A program made the position numbers. 64,000 bases of DNA, from the NCBI GenBank assembly GCA_963713855.1, contig OY970209.1, forward strand, positions 320,001 to 384,000, in the 5' to 3' direction. Of this stretch, positions 30,001 through 36,000 are shown piece by piece. This stretch comes from an uncultured bacterium. Lineage in GTDB: Bacteria > Babelota > Babeliae > Babelales > Babelaceae. How positions within the stretch are numbered: position 1 is the stretch's first letter; each line of letters begins with the position of its first letter.

Positions 30001-33000
30001 ATCTGCACCTTAATAGCATGATCATGGTAAAGGTGTCCAATCTCATGATATAATGTAAATGCATCAAAGCTATCGGCGTTAAAAAATAGTGATGACAAAA
30101 CGATGACCCTAAATGGGGGAATTAGCATGGCCACAGCGGCATAAGGCGCATCAACATCAGGATTTTCCAAGACCATCACATCATGAGGATAATCGACTTT
30201 CTTAAGCGCACGCGCAACTCGTCGCCGATTGAGACGCGATGCTTCTTTATAACCCGCTGCTAAAAAAGCTTTCTTTACAAACTCACGCGCTTTATCATAG
30301 CCAACATTCAAAACATAAGGCACGATCGCAAAAATGTTACTTACTTCAATAGTACCAAGCCCCGAAAGTATATACTGTAAATATGACATAGTCTCGGTGC
30401 TCTTTACTGGATCCGCTATATCTTTTGATCTCAAATGTTTGCCGGTTTTACTCTCCCACTCGGTGCTGCGAGCCTTTACAATACCTTCAAATTGCTCTGC
30501 AAGCTCTTTGGCTGGACTTTGTAAGTAAAAGTAGTTTGACAGCTTAAATAAGACTCGATTAGCTTCACGAGCGATGTCCTCGTCATAGTTTGGTTGCTTT
30601 TGATACTCATTGAGCGCACTTTCAAGTTGTTCATGGATCTCATTTGCCCGTGGTTGTCCAACCGTGAAGATAATCTTCTTGGTTTGTGCCACATCAAGGA
30701 AGGTTTGAGCAAACTTGATCAATTGTGTAAGGCGCGATGAGATCGTAAAGTTTTCTTGAGCGCTTAGAAAGGAACAGGCGAATAAAAACAATAAAACATA
30801 TCTCATTGAAATCTCTCTCTAAATTGCAATAATCGATTATAAATGCATCATATCAGATATCAATTTCAAATTTCAATATATTGCGCTTCGATTTGGCTAT
30901 AGGACAAAGTTACAAAGAGCTCCCCCGAGACAAAAAACAACTAAGATGTCCTATGAGTGCTATTTATCATTATGATTTTGTTTCTTGAAATAAGCTTTTG
31001 CGTTGATTTAAGGTGTCTGATATAGGCGTGGTAGTAATTTGGGTTAATTATAAAGTCGGGGCTTTCCCGCGCAAGGGGTGATTATGAAAAAAAGAATTCT
31101 CGTTACTGGTGCCGGATCTGGATTTGGTGAAGGCACTGCTATCGGTCTTGCCAAAAAAGGGCATGACGTTATTGCTGGTGTGCATATATGGCCACAAGCT
31201 ACCAGAATGCGTAACGAGGTAAAATCGCTTGGGCTTCGTAATTTGCGTGTAGAAAAACTTGATATTCTTGATCCTGTAGACGTTGCTAACGCATTACATT
31301 GGGACATTGATATTCTTGTCAACAATGCTGCGATTGGTTATGGTGGCCCTGTTTCGGAAATTCCATTGGAGCTCATTCGCCAAACATTTGAGACAAACCT
31401 TTTTGGTAGTCTCGATCTGGCCCAGAAATTTATACGCAAGTTTGTCGACCAAAAACGCCCGGGCAAAATTGTATTTACAAGCTCAATTGCCGGACTATTG
31501 CCCGCACCTGGCTTTGGCCCCTATGCTGCCTCAAAACATGCCTTAGAGTGCATTGCTGAAAACCTCCAGCACGAATTAAAGCCTTACAATATCCAGGTCC
31601 AAACAATCAACCCGGCTGCGTATCGTACAGGATTTAATGATACTATGTGCGAAACAACATCACACTGGATGGATGACAAAAAGAACTTTCACAAAAAGGC
31701 TGATGTTGAAAAACTTTTAAAGCCAACCTTGGACAATCAGCTTGACCCGAAGGAGATGATTGAGGCAATGATTTCGATCATTCCTGCTGATTCTGGTAAA
31801 TTCCGCAATGTAGTTCCAAAAGCTGCCGAGGATTTTCTTAAAAAGTGGCAAGCAGATGCCTGGAAAAACGAGATCTAATATTAAGGAAATAATGGCGTCG
31901 AATTATAGACATGTTCAGAAACGGTGAAGTAGATTTTGATTTTACATCGAATGCTATTCAGACTGTTCTTTCAACTCTCCATATCGAATAAATAGAAAAA
32001 ACTGCTACGAAGTTAATTAGCTTATATCTTTAAAAGCTATATTAGCGCCGAGGATGGTCATACCACATCAGAGGTCAAAAAAATATCTCTTCTTAAGAAG
32101 TGCTTAATACTAATATTGTTACATTTTCAACAATGTGAGGCTGCACTTCAAGCTAAATATGAAGATCAGACAAATTCTTGGAGATTTTCTCTTCAAGTGC
32201 TATTATATACAATTATTTAGCCATTACAAAAACGCTATAACAGAGCATCATCTCGCCAATATAGAGTATATTAATCAATTTTTTAATTTATTTAACCTGA
32301 GTTCTACAAGAGTATGTTCTTCAATCGAATTATTACGATTTGTACGTTTCTTTTTGCCATAACTGCATTTGCTCAAGAAACGCCAAAACCGATCCAACTT
32401 CTGCCACACCAACAGTATCCGATTGATTATCTGGTCAAGAACAAAAATGCAAAGGGCCTGATTGTCAATCATTATATGGGCACTGGAAAAACTTACCTAG
32501 GAATTGGATTTGCGGAGCGCTTTCCCGATAAGTCCATTGTGATTTTGGCGCCCAGATTTATTGAAGCACATTGGCAACAACACCTCAGAGATTTTCCTGC
32601 CAAGGACCTGAAGCGATACCAATTTGTTTCTTACAACAATGCTCCCAAATTGCTTTTGAACAAGGACCTTAGCAACACCGTCGTAATCATGGATGAAGTT
32701 CATAACCTCATCAAAATGATAAAATCGCCAAACCCAGAGGAAAATCGTCGCCTTAGCGATCTCTATATCCATTTGCGCAGCGCATATAAAATTCTCGCAT
32801 TATCAGGCACGCCGATTTACAACGATGAATACGATTTTGCTTATTTGATTAACCTCATCTCCGGAAAAGATTTGATGCCTTTTAACGAGGAACAGTTTCG
32901 AATTGATTATACACGCATCAAGAAAGGTCGCTCATTTTGGCGCGGCTATGTCTTTGAAAGCAATATCTTAAAGCAGGTCCTTCCGCTGATCGTGGGGGCG

Positions 33001-36000
33001 GCCGTGGCGCCACTTGTAATCGTCGCTGGACCGGAAGTTGCAGCGCCTTTGGGAATCGCGGGCGTAGTGGGTGCGGTTCTTATTTTTCCACTGGAAACCA
33101 ATTGGATAGCTCCCATCGAAACACATCCTCTAAGAGATCTCGATGCCAAGAAATTTGAACCCTTCATTTCACGGTACGTTTCATTTTACGAAATCGAGAA
33201 CCTTGACATGTCCGACTTTCCATCAAAAACGATGCACGTCGAAGACGTCGACTACAACACTGAACAGTTCTGGTTCTTTTTGAACTTCGCCGAAAAGAGC
33301 TTAGGAAATAAAGGTCTTGCACGACTGTACAAAGACATCGATCCCAATCTTGAACAAAGCTATTTGACACTAAACACGACCGTGCTTCAAGACCGCTTGG
33401 CAAGCACCATTGGATCTGGACGCGAAATTGGTAACCTTGAATTTTTAGGCGAACACGGCCTCATTGAAGCGCCCAAGTTTGAACGAGTGCTTCGCAAGAT
33501 GCAGGCACAAGGTATGCCCAAATCAGTTGTGTATTCGAATTATTTTGAAAATGGCACTTTAGCCTTCGCGCGCTTCCTCGATCGAAAGGGCTTAAACAAC
33601 GCCTATGCCATTTTGCGACCAGATATGCCGGCCAACACCTTTGCCGAAGTAATTCAAAAATATAACGAGGGCCTCGTAAAGATCCTCTTGATGCATCCAG
33701 AAATCACCGAGGGAATCTCACTCAAGGGAACACGTCAATTTCATGTGCTCGAGCCTGTAAGCAATCTTACCGTTCTTAACCAGGTTGTTGCACGCGCCGT
33801 ACGCTACCAATCACATGCAATGCTTGCCCCTTCAGAGCGCCATGTCGACGTCTATATGTGGAAATCTGTGATTGCTTCAGCAAGTCTTCAAACACTGAAA
33901 TTGCAGAAGTTCAATTGGTTTAAGCGCTACTCGGAAATGAGTGACTGGAGCAATTTTGGACAAGGCATTTCGCAAATCGATAAAAACTATGATCGAAAGC
34001 GACTCTCACCGGATACTCAAAGCTATCTTCATTTGGAATCAGTGAACCAGAATATTGAAAACCTCAAAAACATCATGAAGCAACAGTCGATTGAAAAGAG
34101 TAACGGGACAAAGAAAGCGCAACTTCAGCCAACTACAGCACTCTCGGACGTCCAAACAGCCTTTGAGCTTGATCCCATTATACTTCCAAAGACAAATTTT
34201 CGCGTGTTTTGGAATCTCAATCAAAAATTGGTCAGACACGATCAAAGTCACGCACTTACCAATGGGTTTGGTTTCAACTGTGAAGTTGAAATCCCGCTTT
34301 GGGAGCATCTTTCATCTGGCTTCTATATTGAAGACTACTGGGGACAAAAACTTAAAGAGCCCATGCCCGACCTCATTGATCCGGCTGGGCACTTGTTACG
34401 GGAACATGGACCTCGCCAAAATGTTCTCGGTTTTGGTGGATTTTTGAAAACACAGCAGCGTTTGCCTCCAACTTTTGGCAACTCGGCCTTGATCCTTCGC
34501 GTACCACTGGGCATCGAAATTGTCTTTGGTCAAGCGCTCATTCCACTCATAAAAGATCAAAAAGACCTCGACCAGTTCTTGAGACCTGGTTGGCGATCCA
34601 TCCGCACTGGCTTTTCATCTGCCAAGCTTGGCTATGGCCTAACAAGCGGTCTTTCTGTCGGATTCGAATATTATCCGATGGAATTTGTGGGTTTATACGT
34701 CGATGGTGGTTATCGAGTGTCATACCAGACGTTCCCTATTACTGTCTCGCAAGAAAACGAAACCACGAATCAAAACACGTTTGAGGGGTTTCGCGGGTAT
34801 TTGATCCAGGGATGGAATGTTTCGATCGGTATTAAGCTAACGTATTGAGGGATCGACTTACCCTATGTTCAGAAATGGCAAAATCTAAATTTTACGTTGA
34901 GCCAGATTCAGACAGCTTTTTCAGCGCTAGACATCGAGTAAGTAGCTAAGAGTCAGCAACATACTAACCGAGCCCAAGATCATTGCTGTTTATCTATACG
35001 CACCCCTCTGGCAATAGCCCAGCTTATACATCCTAAACTGCTATTGACCAAGCATTTACCAAACTCTTTGGTATTGCACAAGATTTACGTTGCACTTTTT
35101 TTCCATATGAACATTAGACAGCAGGTAATAACGAGTAAAAAATATCTTGTTTTAACGGGGTCGGAAGAAAACCATTGAAGGTACTTCAATAATCAAAACT
35201 GGCGTGAGCCGGCGGACGGGGCTAAACAACAATCTGTTGTAAGACCTCTCAAAATTTGATACTATCTAAATATATAAAGATTGGGTTTAAGCAGTTCCAT
35301 GAAAAGACAAATAATTGAGGCCAGAGAATTTATGAAAGAAATAGACAGCCTCATTGCTAAGAAAAAGCTAATAAATAGCGATTTTGAGACTTTAAAAAAC
35401 TATCTTGCTCAAAATCCTACTGAGGGCGATTTGATCAGAGGTAGTGGAGGTCTTAGAAAAATAAGGTTAAAAGCCCCAGACAAAGGTAAAAGTGGCGGAT
35501 TCAGGGTATACTATTACGATGATGCCAATAATAGAATTATCTGGCTATTATGGCTGCACCCAAAGAGTGAACAAGAAAATATTACAGCTCAAGAAAAAAG
35601 TATTTTAAAAAAGACCATAAAGGAATTGCTATGAGCAAACTTTTTGAGAAGCTTATGAAAGGCCTAGAAGATGTCGCTGACCATAAAAAAGGCAAGCTCA
35701 ATCTACGCACAACAACTATCGAAATTTCCGATTCAGCATCTAAACAAAAAAGAGCATCTCGCAGTTCTTCGACAAGCAAAAAAGCCTTAAACAAAGTTCA
35801 TGTGCCTTTAAATATTGAGATTCCGTCCGGTCTTCATAGAAGATTGCAGGAAGAAGCTTCTGAATGTGGCATAAGCTTTAACTCCCTTATCATAGAAAAA
35901 CTAGCAAGATAAAGCAGAATTGATTATGAATAAGCAATTAGCAGATCAGCTCAATATTGACTTAGATCCGGGTCTGCTTCTTAAAGACCTTCGATTGCAC

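Follow-up and report, generated by a model that had tools for sequence, protein, structure and literature searches.

Organization of the locus

In the window, that is, the whole stretch of 64,000 nucleotides analysed here, a genuine ORF with an ATG start and free of internal stops encodes a protein in which a predicted signal peptide, an SF2-fold ATPase carrying a membrane hairpin and an eight-stranded β-barrel follow one another (Table 1). The initial annotation had proposed this layout, and the ORF, its motifs, Pfam, the AF2 model and Foldseek agree on it. Pfam returned ResIII (30.8 bits) and Helicase_C (25.3 bits), both above cut-off, and SNF2-rel_dom at 23.1 bits against a cut-off of 24.9, covering residues 123–187 only. 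The AF2 model and fold searches indicated a tandem RecA fold, with CSB (7oob_b, E 3.2e-17) and vaccinia NPH-I (6rfl_Y, E 6.5e-17) as the best Foldseek matches of the full model; INO80 was matched with a VIA Z of up to 26.5 (rmsd 4.4, 387 aligned).

Table 1. Features of the ATPase-barrel gene and its surroundings (window coordinates)
Feature	Position	Strand	Remarks
Whole gene, from signal peptide through hairpin-bearing SF2 ATPase and linker to 8-stranded β-barrel	32314..34848	+	844 aa
Predicted Sec/SPase I signal peptide, residues 1–20	32314..32373	+	rule-based, not SignalP
RecA1 domain	32374..32961	+	motifs Q to III; ends at family-invariant R210-G211...E215
Hydrophobic Gly/Ala/Pro-rich helical hairpin, residues 217–265	32962..33108	+	inserted behind motif III, separating RecA1 from RecA2
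RecA2 domain	33109..33885	+	motif IV 404–411, motif VI 490–497
Family-specific aromatic-rich C-terminal element	33886..34104	+	W535, E541, D556, K562, P566, S-I-E at end
Linker, ~23 aa	34105..34173	+	low model confidence; most homologues stop here, barrel being a separate gene
Predicted OmpA/NspA/OmpW-fold outer-membrane barrel	34174..34845	+	8 strands, aromatic end; dedicated barrel family
Context, outside the system: genes for a RelE toxin and a HicB-like antitoxin, followed by tRNA-Glu and tRNA-Lys	35281..36332		

The putative signal peptide comprises a basic n-region, a hydrophobic core and A-F-A ahead of the predicted cleavage site. RecA1 carries the Q motif LLPHQ (29–33), Walker A (53–60), motif Ia (78–88), the Ib/Ic Ser106, DEVH (127–130) and motif III (164–167). 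The hairpin consists of helices 217–238 and 240–265 in the AF2 full model (pLDDT 76.0), the median uncharged run in the family being 42 aa. Its hydrophobicity is marginal: it scores about +1.0 to +1.2 in the source protein and has family medians of +1.65 and +2.7, as compared with a median of −0.05 (range −3.6 to +4.0) for reference helices, values that do not settle the target membrane. In RecA2, E466-G467 and the motif VI residues Q490, R494 and R497 are intact, and P436, F443 and H461-P462 stand where the outgroup has Gly, Arg and Ser/Thr, respectively. The C-terminal element is in part common to the giant-virus sister clade described below.

The toxin-antitoxin and tRNA stretch borders a variable slot, which in a same-genus genome is occupied by a transposase and an ankyrin protein. 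A 14-bp repeat flanking the gene was rejected as a target-site duplication because a same-genus genome without the gene has a close version of it twice.

The ATP site is conserved, whereas three nucleic-acid contacts are replaced

Seven residues (K59, D127, E128, T166, Q490, R494 and R497) were invariant in all 139 sequences compared. On the nucleic-acid side, P80 (Ia), S106 (Ib/Ic) and S408 (motif IV) were kept in 36, 32 and 37 of 37 bacterial members, respectively, whereas three RecA2 positions were replaced throughout the family. The motif V Ser/Thr of all 29 outgroup sequences, a residue by which SF2 helicases contact the phosphate backbone, is His in 36 of the 37 bacterial members and aligns to Ser in NPH-I; the motif IVa Gly (28/29) is Pro in 33; and the Arg/Lys of QxxR (24/29) is Gln, Phe or Val in 32, these positions having been mapped from alignments and not from a solved complex. 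PMC7385628 reports that RIG-I and NS3 no longer bind nucleic acid but keep their ATPase activity when the motif V Thr is mutated, and that the mutation leaves Mfd with severely impaired DNA binding. The motif V His could still bind phosphate. The initial annotation had spoken of an intact helicase, a wording that is not supported: the ATP-site motifs are intact, but the label ‘helicase’ is doubtful for this protein, because three conserved RecA2 nucleic-acid contacts are replaced family-wide.

Predicted export signals

A hydrophobic N-terminal segment was found in 126 of the 136 family members in which the Q motif is visible, signal peptides having been assigned by rule throughout. A lipobox, as defined by a permissive pattern, was present in 69 of the 136, none of which has Asp at +2. 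With a stricter cut-off, 69/76 family members passed as compared with 2/41 more distant SF2 relatives and 2/15 P-loop plus DExH/D ORFs of the source genome, the one besides the present ATPase being by eye an FtsH-like membrane protein. Signal-like N-termini are common in the source genome, where 266 of 718 long ORFs pass a similar rule; this would suit a normal helicase of the cytoplasm whose start was called wrongly and which happens to lie beside one of many generic barrels, as would the frameshift in the closest relative (L002). Such an artefact is, however, very improbable and largely refuted. M1 is the sole in-frame ATG, GTG or TTG upstream of the Q motif in the source gene, so that the signal-like segment cannot be skipped; two kinds of export signal alternate within the family; in-frame barrel fusions have arisen repeatedly and copy numbers are one-to-one (see below); and the source gene differs from L002 by 117 synonymous and 53 non-synonymous codon changes. 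Taken together, the sequences argue strongly for Sec export of the ATPase.

The ATPase is paired with a dedicated barrel

The barrel model (pLDDT 84.4) predicts eight antiparallel membrane strands. VIA placed it closest to NspA (Z 16.9, rmsd 2.8, 151 aligned), followed by the Legionella Dot/Icm ‘porin III’ (16.5), OprF (15.1), OmpA (15.0) and OmpW (14.9), as against 8.0 for autotransporter barrels. As had been noted before, the barrel alone matched no Pfam family at E<=1, and it belongs to no named Pfam/NCBIfam family; PF13505 weakly matched 2 of 16 family members (E 0.013). The only PDB sequence matches of the barrel profile, photosynthetic reaction-centre L chains (E 0.003 and 0.1), were judged to be hydrophobic noise, and the Atlas matches (0.94, 125–143 shared features) are generic barrel clusters that serve as leads only. 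The barrel belongs to a dedicated family, which at E<=0.001 numbers 336 clusters (50% identity) and occurs almost only beside the ATPase. Stand-alone barrels have signal-like N-termini in 113 of 129 cases and F, L, I or Y as their final residue in 124, the last residue of the source protein being Tyr. Conserved barrel positions include N-terminal prolines, short turns and inward charged residues; the long loops are variable, with insertions of ~200 aa in Rickettsiales.

In 19 of 22 loci the barrel was either fused to the ATPase or encoded next to it, and the remaining three loci end at contig edges; the pairing reported earlier is thereby upheld, and its figure of 14 of 23 loci superseded. Across 20 genomes, 30 ATPase genes (34 matches joined over contig breaks and one frameshift) stood against 31 barrels, with equal numbers in 19 genomes. 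In one order, all 13 ATPase carriers (of 38 genomes) had a strong barrel match and only 2 of the 25 ATPase-free genomes gave weak ones (E 5e-6 and 3e-5); in a second class of 127 genomes, the ATPase was found in five, and the barrel in the same five plus one weak match. Leave-one-out barrel scores were 37–85 bits, as compared with at most 13 for unrelated ORFs. The two partners also co-diverge (rho 0.65 for the distance correlation, reached in 0 of 5000 permutations), their nearest neighbours being identical in 16 of 21 pairs. Fusions (13 of 140 family proteins) are spread over four separate clades. Exceptions were one barrel without an adjacent ATPase (in genome G210) and one locus with two ATPases around a single barrel. 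No third conserved gene partner was seen by eye, the neighbours varying from lineage to lineage, and complex prediction for a separately encoded pair (L003) scored 0.00 on 21-row alignments, which is evidence neither way. The 19 loci, the copy numbers and the co-divergence strengthen the earlier proposal of a predicted exported SF2-fold ATPase with a barrel partner, and support the view that the ATPase and the eight-stranded outer-membrane barrel would constitute an obligate two-part system.

Distribution and common ancestry with a giant-virus clade

Among 8000 candidates scored, 276 proteins matched at E<=1e-20, of which the best 120 (the 120th at 694 bits) were viewed for membership. The family does occur in Babelota, as previously stated, but rarely so: the source genome was the single carrier among 201 genomes sampled from the phylum, and one further genome of its own taxonomic family, beyond that sample, has the ATPase as well. 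Carriers amounted to 13/38 genomes in one order and 5/127 in the second class, with up to five paralogues per genome. The ATPase gene has recently been transferred between genera, and in the source Babeliales genome it is a recent horizontal acquisition.

In the tree, the bacterial clade is sister to a viral clade and not nested inside it, the joint branch having an SH-aLRT of 100. The bacterial branch and this giant-virus clade of NPH-I/D6-like SF2 proteins with a membrane hairpin share a common ancestor. We claim no donor direction because the tree is a quick LG+G4 reconstruction with SH-aLRT as its only support and at least 23 rows of skewed composition. The viral members (P0077, P0078, P0281–88 and P0290–94; loci L065–68, L090–95, L099, L100 and L103) share the hydrophobic insertion at the identical place, His-Pro in motif V (His in 21/22) and a C-terminal SPD...SIE element. 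They differ in lacking signal peptide and barrel, in a longer inter-helix loop and in their tandem copies or tandem fusion; none of the 11 with a measurable N-terminal extension has a hydrophobic N-terminus, and four more are too short. Family members on viral contigs were detected with a viral alignment, and none with the bacterial alignment or with single viral proteins. L209 was rejected as a member, being a D6-like gene on a virus-like contig. The best viral fold matches were NCLDV early-transcription-factor and DEAD/SNF2-like helicases, and in the Atlas the nearest clusters of the ATPase are all viral. No description of this viral clade, nor of the ATPase-barrel system, was found in the literature searched, which covered few subscription journals and no supplements. 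The lipobox, the hairpin-bearing viral sister clade and the association with nucleotide import described next go beyond the initial annotation.

Host ATP and the possible role of the system

The source group comprises bacteria living inside single-celled hosts. PF03219, the family of ATP/ADP-type nucleotide transporters, was found in 16 of 21 carrier genomes and in none of 14 control genomes; within the one order it was present in 12/13 ATPase carriers and 5/25 non-carriers, and none of the 15 genomes of at least 4.5 Mb had either the ATPase or PF03219. Five of the 21 carriers (Oligoflexia/Bdellovibrionia MAGs) are unmatched, and three, the source genome included, have divergent matches only. 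The ATPase system tracks host-dependent, nucleotide-importing bacteria, a link that may partly reflect shared ancestry because related genomes are not independent.

Our preferred reading, put forward tentatively and at somewhat less than an even chance, is that of an envelope-tethered, membrane-inserted ATPase that is driven by host ATP, docks on the barrel and acts on a substrate other than nucleic acid. With the hairpin already ancestral, the bacterial branch would have gained a Sec or lipoprotein signal and the dedicated outer-membrane barrel. After export by Sec, for which the sequence evidence is strong, the ATPase would be tethered to the outer membrane by barrel fusion, a lipid anchor or the separate barrel, the observed genetic coupling suggesting physical contact. 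It would probably sit on the periplasmic face, at the N-terminal side of the barrel, with the hairpin in the inner membrane or in the inner leaflet of the outer membrane. Host ATP that crosses the outer membrane of bacteria inside eukaryotic cells might then be hydrolysed, a use consistent with the ATP motifs and the transporter co-occurrence. Closure of the RecA domains could shift the hairpin relative to the barrel and so perform mechanical work on membranes or on a protein or lipid substrate; it would then no longer move along DNA or RNA, as the loss of contacts suggests. In E. coli, PMC7432876 reports that external ATP reaches the periplasm, which favours this reading; the low level found there, 24 uM per 10^10 cells, and the hydrolysis of ATP in that compartment speak against it.

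The same features might also suit an effector that is displayed on the surface or delivered to the host, the barrel being a BAM-dependent display or export partner and the ATPase facing the host with its hairpin in the vacuole or ER membrane, in a host-cytosol role like that of its giant-virus relatives; its bold form would be interference with giant viruses sharing the host. We regard this as rather unlikely, despite several points in its favour. The viral sisters presumably face the ATP-rich eukaryotic cytosol, since they lack signal peptide and barrel; the order of the fusion (signal, passenger, barrel) is that of autotransporters; the ankyrin protein in the same slot of a same-genus genome bears a signal; and the multiple paralogues and recent intergenus transfer are as in effector families. 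A symbiont can indeed block giant-virus replication in amoebae (PMC9457554), this being Parachlamydia and not one of the present lineages. Against an effector, the bacterial clade is sister to the viral one and not nested, the linker is very short, and barrel conservation lies in the prolines, turns and inward charges and not in the long loops. Moreover, a barrel of only eight strands has no lumen through which a passenger could pass, and eight-stranded barrels of the OmpA family begin and end in the periplasm. A genuine nucleic-acid translocase outside the cytoplasm, which would draw host or prey DNA or RNA through the envelope to scavenge nucleotides or in competence, comes nearest to what the initial annotation proposed. 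It would agree with the SNF2/NPH-I fold, the intact ATP motifs, the retained P80, S106 and S408 and the fact that carriers are nucleotide parasites. We consider it improbable in view of the three replaced RecA2 contacts, a barrel too narrow for a nucleic-acid strand and neighbourhoods that differ between lineages and in which inspection by eye showed no third partner to be conserved.

Returning to the envelope-tethered ATPase, the system may represent, with a likelihood approaching but not reaching one half, an ATP motor that bacteria inside protists have built outside their cytoplasm, fed by the host and derived from a membrane-anchored SF2 protein shared with giant viruses. This motor would have come off nucleic acid and, with a dedicated barrel, would be an envelope or host-membrane machine of a new class, the viral sisters being the same motor on host membranes. 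To our knowledge, SF2 motors are generally regarded as enzymes that act on nucleic acids within the cell, SecA being the familiar exception. Processes at the outer membrane normally draw their energy from the inner membrane, according to PMC12204202. If this reading is true, an exported hairpin-bearing SF2 ATPase with a barrel of its own would break both rules, because of life in an ATP-rich host. It would also connect the envelopes of endosymbionts with a little-known protein family of giant viruses that has not been studied, and one biochemical study would therefore inform both.

Comparison with known systems

The fusion shares its signal-passenger-barrel order with type V secretion, and elsewhere in the family ATPase and barrel form a two-gene arrangement, as in two-partner secretion. 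Assignment to type Va or Vb was rejected: the barrel has eight strands instead of the 12 of a Va translocator or the 16 of a POTRA-bearing TpsB, no POTRA or TPS domain was found in the ATPase-barrel system, and the cargo is an ATPase, often a lipoprotein. Anti-phage helicases (DpdE, BrxH, ZorD) and defence systems were likewise rejected, DpdE scoring 41 bits against a cut-off of 500 and PADLOC matches being partial only. SecA resembles the ATPase in its SF2 fold and in the membrane job and non-nucleic-acid substrate proposed here, but is cytoplasmic and without membrane hairpin or barrel; SecA Pfam families gave no match at E<=1, and its absence from the top 50 fold matches excludes nothing. 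Anchoring by the hairpin would be like that of atlastin-type NTPases, although the ATPase belongs to neither the SecA nor the atlastin family. The barrel has the fold of OmpA, NspA, OmpW and OprF (Z 14.9–16.9) but forms a separate sequence family.

With the SNF2 motors CSB, INO80, ISWI and Chd1 the ATPase shares the two-RecA fold and an insertion after motif III; identity is ~15%, and the ATPase differs in that its insertion forms a hydrophobic hairpin, that nucleic-acid contacts are replaced and that export is predicted. Vaccinia NPH-I (D11; PDB 6rfl chain Y), a virion-packaged DNA-dependent transcription factor, was the only PDB sequence match of the ATPase (E 3.2e-9), NPHI_C (PF08469) giving no Pfam match at E<=1. 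NPH-I and the Nucleocytoviricota D6/D11-like helicases have the same Q, I, II, III and VI motifs, to which the present family adds a signal peptide, a membrane hairpin and a barrel partner, together with the change of the motif V Ser of NPH-I to His.

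Domain organization and predicted export of the ATPase

The gene that the initial annotation had described proved to be real: sequence and structure models agree on one open frame encoding a signal-like N-terminus, two RecA domains, a hairpin and an eight-stranded barrel. Residues 1-20 resemble a Sec signal peptide, and no further in-frame ATG, GTG or TTG was found ahead of the first conserved motif. ResIII and Helicase_C exceeded the Pfam cut-off, the C-terminal 240 residues had no Pfam match, and the only sequence match among solved structures was chain Y of 6rfl, vaccinia NPH-I (E 3.2e-9). 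The AF2 model of the whole protein (34-row alignment, pLDDT 76.0) comprised two RecA domains and, at residues 217-265, a hairpin of helices, and Foldseek placed CSB and NPH-I at the top of its matches. The barrel modelled alone (16 rows, pLDDT 84.4) had eight membrane strands and matched NspA (Z 16.9) and a Legionella Dot/Icm-associated porin (16.5), followed by OprF, OmpA and OmpW. Hydrophobicity of the hairpin, an insertion after motif III, was marginal and does not discriminate between the membranes.

A single-sequence search returned 116 proteins (E below 1e-100 for 75), most of them ∼600 aa long and stopping where the linker starts; a profile search returned 276 at E<=1e-20, the best 120 of which were listed. 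From a pooled family set of 140 proteins, four with truncated starts that lacked the Q motif (LLPHQ, residues 29-33 in the protein of the window) were removed. Of the remaining 136, 126 carry a hydrophobic N-terminal segment, with a lipobox in 69 of those by a rule-based call, and the lipobox Cys is followed by Ala, Ser or Thr in 62 of the 69 and by Asp in none. In E. coli the residue after the lipoprotein Cys indicates the destination membrane, a residue other than Asp directing the protein to the outer membrane, and by this rule the lipobox-bearing members are probably destined for the outer membrane. Among the ten signal-less exceptions, several start at or just ahead of the Cys and look like mis-called starts. 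As controls, 2 of 41 more distant superfamily 2 (SF2) relatives and 2 of 15 P-loop and DExH/D ORFs of the window's genome passed the signal rule. Since 266 of 718 long ORFs of this genome also passed, the rule alone is weak, and the argument for export rests on the alternation of two signal types together with the fusion to a barrel. The ATPase family is predicted to be exported.

The barrel is an obligate partner of the ATPase

In the genomes and loci examined, the barrel is an obligate and dedicated partner of the ATPase. The pairing proposed in the initial annotation was thus upheld, while its count of 14 in 23 loci is superseded: with an iterated profile, 19 of 22 genome-assembly loci had the barrel fused (4 loci), directly downstream (6) or divergently upstream (9), and in the remaining three the contig reaches no more than 230 bases upstream. 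For two of these three, the start of an ATPase gene adjoins a barrel elsewhere in the genome, on a different contig; the third genome holds a barrel truncated at a contig end. Across 20 genomes, 31 barrel matches stood against 34 ATPase matches joining to 30 genes, and the numbers were equal in 19, the exception being the gammaproteobacterial G210 with five ATPases and six barrels, one of which is solitary. In the order of G202, all 38 genomes were searched and 13 had the ATPase, each with a strong barrel match fused or within 600 bases, and two non-carriers gave weak barrel matches only. In the class of G209 (127 genomes), five had the ATPase and the same five the barrel, plus one weak match. 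The barrel was likewise present at 4/4 bacterial metagenome loci, in one with a gene between it and the ATPase, and at 6/6 further loci of a second scan. Of these six, one is a duplicate of a metagenome locus, and another consists of two ATPases around one barrel.

With leave-one-out profiles, from which rows more than 30% identical were excluded, each of 21 barrels scored 37-85 bits, against at most 13 bits for unrelated ORFs, other barrel-like neighbours included. ATPase and barrel distances were correlated (rho 0.65, 0/5000 permutations), which is taken to show joint inheritance and not contact. Fusions account for 13 of the 140 family proteins and are spread over four separate clades; the barrel family comprises 336 clusters at 50% identity, counted on sequence clusters alone.

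Variants of the arrangement were also seen. G210 (loci L011, L016, L057, L059, L060 and L058) carries fused as well as split forms, and in one of the fused copies the N-terminal third is missing. In one Myxococcota clade (L006, L007, L009, L096, L098, L101 and L174) an AI-2E/PerM-family permease, checked by Pfam in L006, follows the ATPase gene, and protein P0029 is an ATPase fused to such a permease; this is possibly a third component, or plain synteny.

Distribution and acquisition

Record titles placed the carriers in Myxococcales/Myxococcota, Oligoflexia, Bdellovibrionia, Oligoflexales, 'Deltaproteobacteria', Rickettsiales, Gammaproteobacteria including Coxiellaceae, and one 'Zetaproteobacteria' MAG; protein names among the best 120 of the 276 profile matches added Legionellales. 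Of 21 carrier genomes, 16 matched the nucleotide (ATP/ADP-type) transporter family PF03219 (13 strongly and 3, including the window's genome, in divergent form) versus none of 14 controls; the five carriers without it are Oligoflexia/Bdellovibrionia MAGs, which may be incomplete. In the order of G202, a strong PF03219 match occurred in 12/13 carriers versus 5/25 non-carriers, and neither ATPase nor PF03219 in any of 15 genomes of at least 4.5 Mb; a carrier from outside this order, with a genome of 6.3 Mb, gave nine transporter matches. Because kin are not independent, we count this link as an association only.

For a housekeeping gene of the window, the nearest relatives that bear a taxonomic name belong to Babeliales/Dependentiae (49-58% identity, as opposed to at most 40% beyond this cluster), several records closer still being without a name or labelled just Pseudomonadota. 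A recent horizontal gain of the ATPase gene by the window's genome is indicated, because within Babelota only 1 of 201 genomes searched has it; because the copy in another genus of the same family (L002, 92.7% nucleotide identity) lies among different neighbours, with homology beginning and ending at the gene ends; because in G153, of the same genus, the slot beside the toxin-antitoxin pair holds a transposase and an ankyrin protein; and because in the tree the protein stands closest to an unlabelled and a Myxococcales protein. The 86-base repeat near the L002 copy is regarded as a trace of recombination. At this locus G153 has two copies of a close version of the 14-bp repeat that flanks the gene.

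Coordinates of the fusion gene, its surroundings and related loci
Feature	Location	Strand	Remarks
ATPase-barrel fusion	window 32314-34848	+	single open frame, 844 aa
Signal-bearing M48-family peptidase	window 29631-30806	-	two genes upstream of the fusion gene
14-bp direct repeat	window 31911-31924 and 34865-34878		one mismatch; flanks the fusion gene; no other copies in genome
RelE toxin with HicB-like antitoxin	window 35281-35912		
tRNA-Glu and tRNA-Lys	window 36169-36332		next to the RelE/HicB-like pair
Paralogous toxin-antitoxin pair	G000:C1:1152265-1152875		window's genome
Pieces of the genome's beta-propeller family	window 24421-25220		apparently split into short ORFs
Gene copy in another genus	L002:5997-8537		one-base frameshift
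Repeat of the last 86 bases of that copy	L002:10571-10656		2 kb downstream
Tandem ATPase-barrel-ATPase	L205:2842-7773		Coxiellaceae MAG; hairpins more divergent
Further exported barrel-like genes near the pair	L003:1-4551 and 9316-10644; L004 likewise		Myxococcales MAGs; aromatic ends; family-profile scores no higher than 13 bits
Rickettsiales-type barrels	L019:3810-5078; L023:7686-8930; P0261		414-422 aa; ∼200-residue, apparently helical insertion in an early loop

A giant-virus sister clade and the nucleic-acid contacts

Two outlying matches had a hydrophobic insertion without a signal peptide, and searching with one of them yielded a group of 15 proteins of this kind. The profile of this group matched at full length on four contigs of IMG/VR, two of which are labelled GVMAG, and on metagenome contigs, where the neighbours include patatin, RNase III and DnaJ; one IMG/VR copy is flanked by WLM, a clamp-loader-like AAA protein and ribonucleotide reductase. 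A barrel was sought beside the viral-type hairpin ATPases and found beside none. On four metagenome contigs (L090-L093) a giant-virus-like ORF consists of two hairpin-ATPase copies head to tail, complete at 1468 aa in three and cut by the contig end in L090, and adjacent paralogues lie in L094 and L099; these arrangements hint that the family works as dimers. L209, titled 'bacterium', carries a D6-like helicase and virus-type neighbours within a bacterial bin and looks like a giant-virus fragment.

In a tree of 88 rows picked by hand for diversity and rooted on 29 hairpin-less relatives, all hairpin proteins fell on one branch (SH-aLRT 100), which splits into bacterial (37 rows, SH-aLRT 99) and viral (22 rows, SH-aLRT 96) sisters. 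The wider relatives are viral, judged by Atlas features and fold. The ATP-side motifs are essentially invariant across the 88 rows, whereas three nucleic-acid-contact positions of RecA2 change at the base of the hairpin clade. Motif V has Ser/Thr in 29/29 outgroup rows, but His, followed by Pro, in 36/37 bacterial and 21/22 viral rows; the QxxR position is Arg/Lys in 24/29 outgroup rows versus Gln/Phe/Val in 32/37 bacterial ones, with Arg kept in 4/22 viral rows. In motif IVa a Gly, which we take to have a role in nucleic-acid binding, is found in 28/29 outgroup rows, against Pro in 33/37 bacterial and mostly Pro/Asp/Asn in viral rows. In the 139-row family alignment P436 is present in 134 and H461 in 135. 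In RIG-I and Vasa the motif V Thr is reported to contact the backbone phosphate, its mutation in RIG-I and NS3 to abolish nucleic-acid binding while sparing ATP hydrolysis, and the 'arginine clamp' of motif IVa to be key to binding (PMC7385628); an account of flavivirus NS3 gives the same picture of motif roles (bioRxiv 10.1101/842088). Retention of P80, S106 and S408 on the nucleic-acid side counts against a loss of nucleic-acid function. New invariant residues occur beside the hairpin (R210, G211, E215, R274) and in a C-terminal element (W535, E541, D556, K562, P566), and suggest a membrane-side module. The 'intact helicase' of the initial annotation therefore needs revision: its ATP motifs are intact, but the motif V, IVa and QxxR contacts are replaced in most rows of the hairpin clade, and the hairpin ATPase is probably not a helicase.

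Proposed mechanism and comparison with known systems

Sequence and genomics together establish an intact ATP site, export signals, a hairpin, an obligate barrel, a tie to nucleotide importers and the loss of three nucleic-acid contacts. We tentatively favour a model, to which we would give not quite an even chance, in which the ATPase would first be exported by Sec, would then dock on the periplasmic face of its own barrel and push its hairpin into a membrane, and host ATP would drive it to move membrane, lipid or protein. In E. coli, external ATP is reported to get into the periplasm and also to be hydrolysed there (PMC7432876). The main rival, that the ATPase is displayed at the surface or delivered to host membranes, would fit the viral sisters, whose presumed place of action is the cytosolic side, and we consider it rather unlikely. 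An importer of nucleic acids, with the retained nucleic-acid-side residues in its favour and the replaced RecA2 contacts against it, seems improbable to us, and an artefact scarcely credible.

By its motifs and fold, the ATPase is placed as an SF2-fold member of the NPH-I/D6-like radiation. It differs from nucleic-acid translocases in their motif V, IVa and QxxR contacts, and from NPH-I orthologues, SecA and defence helicases in the features tested for each, as does the ATPase-barrel system from type Va and type Vb secretion. A literature search, mostly of titles and abstract openings, found no description of such a system. We regard the pair, whose function is predicted, as a real and tightly coupled two-part system that is, as an architecture, categorically new.
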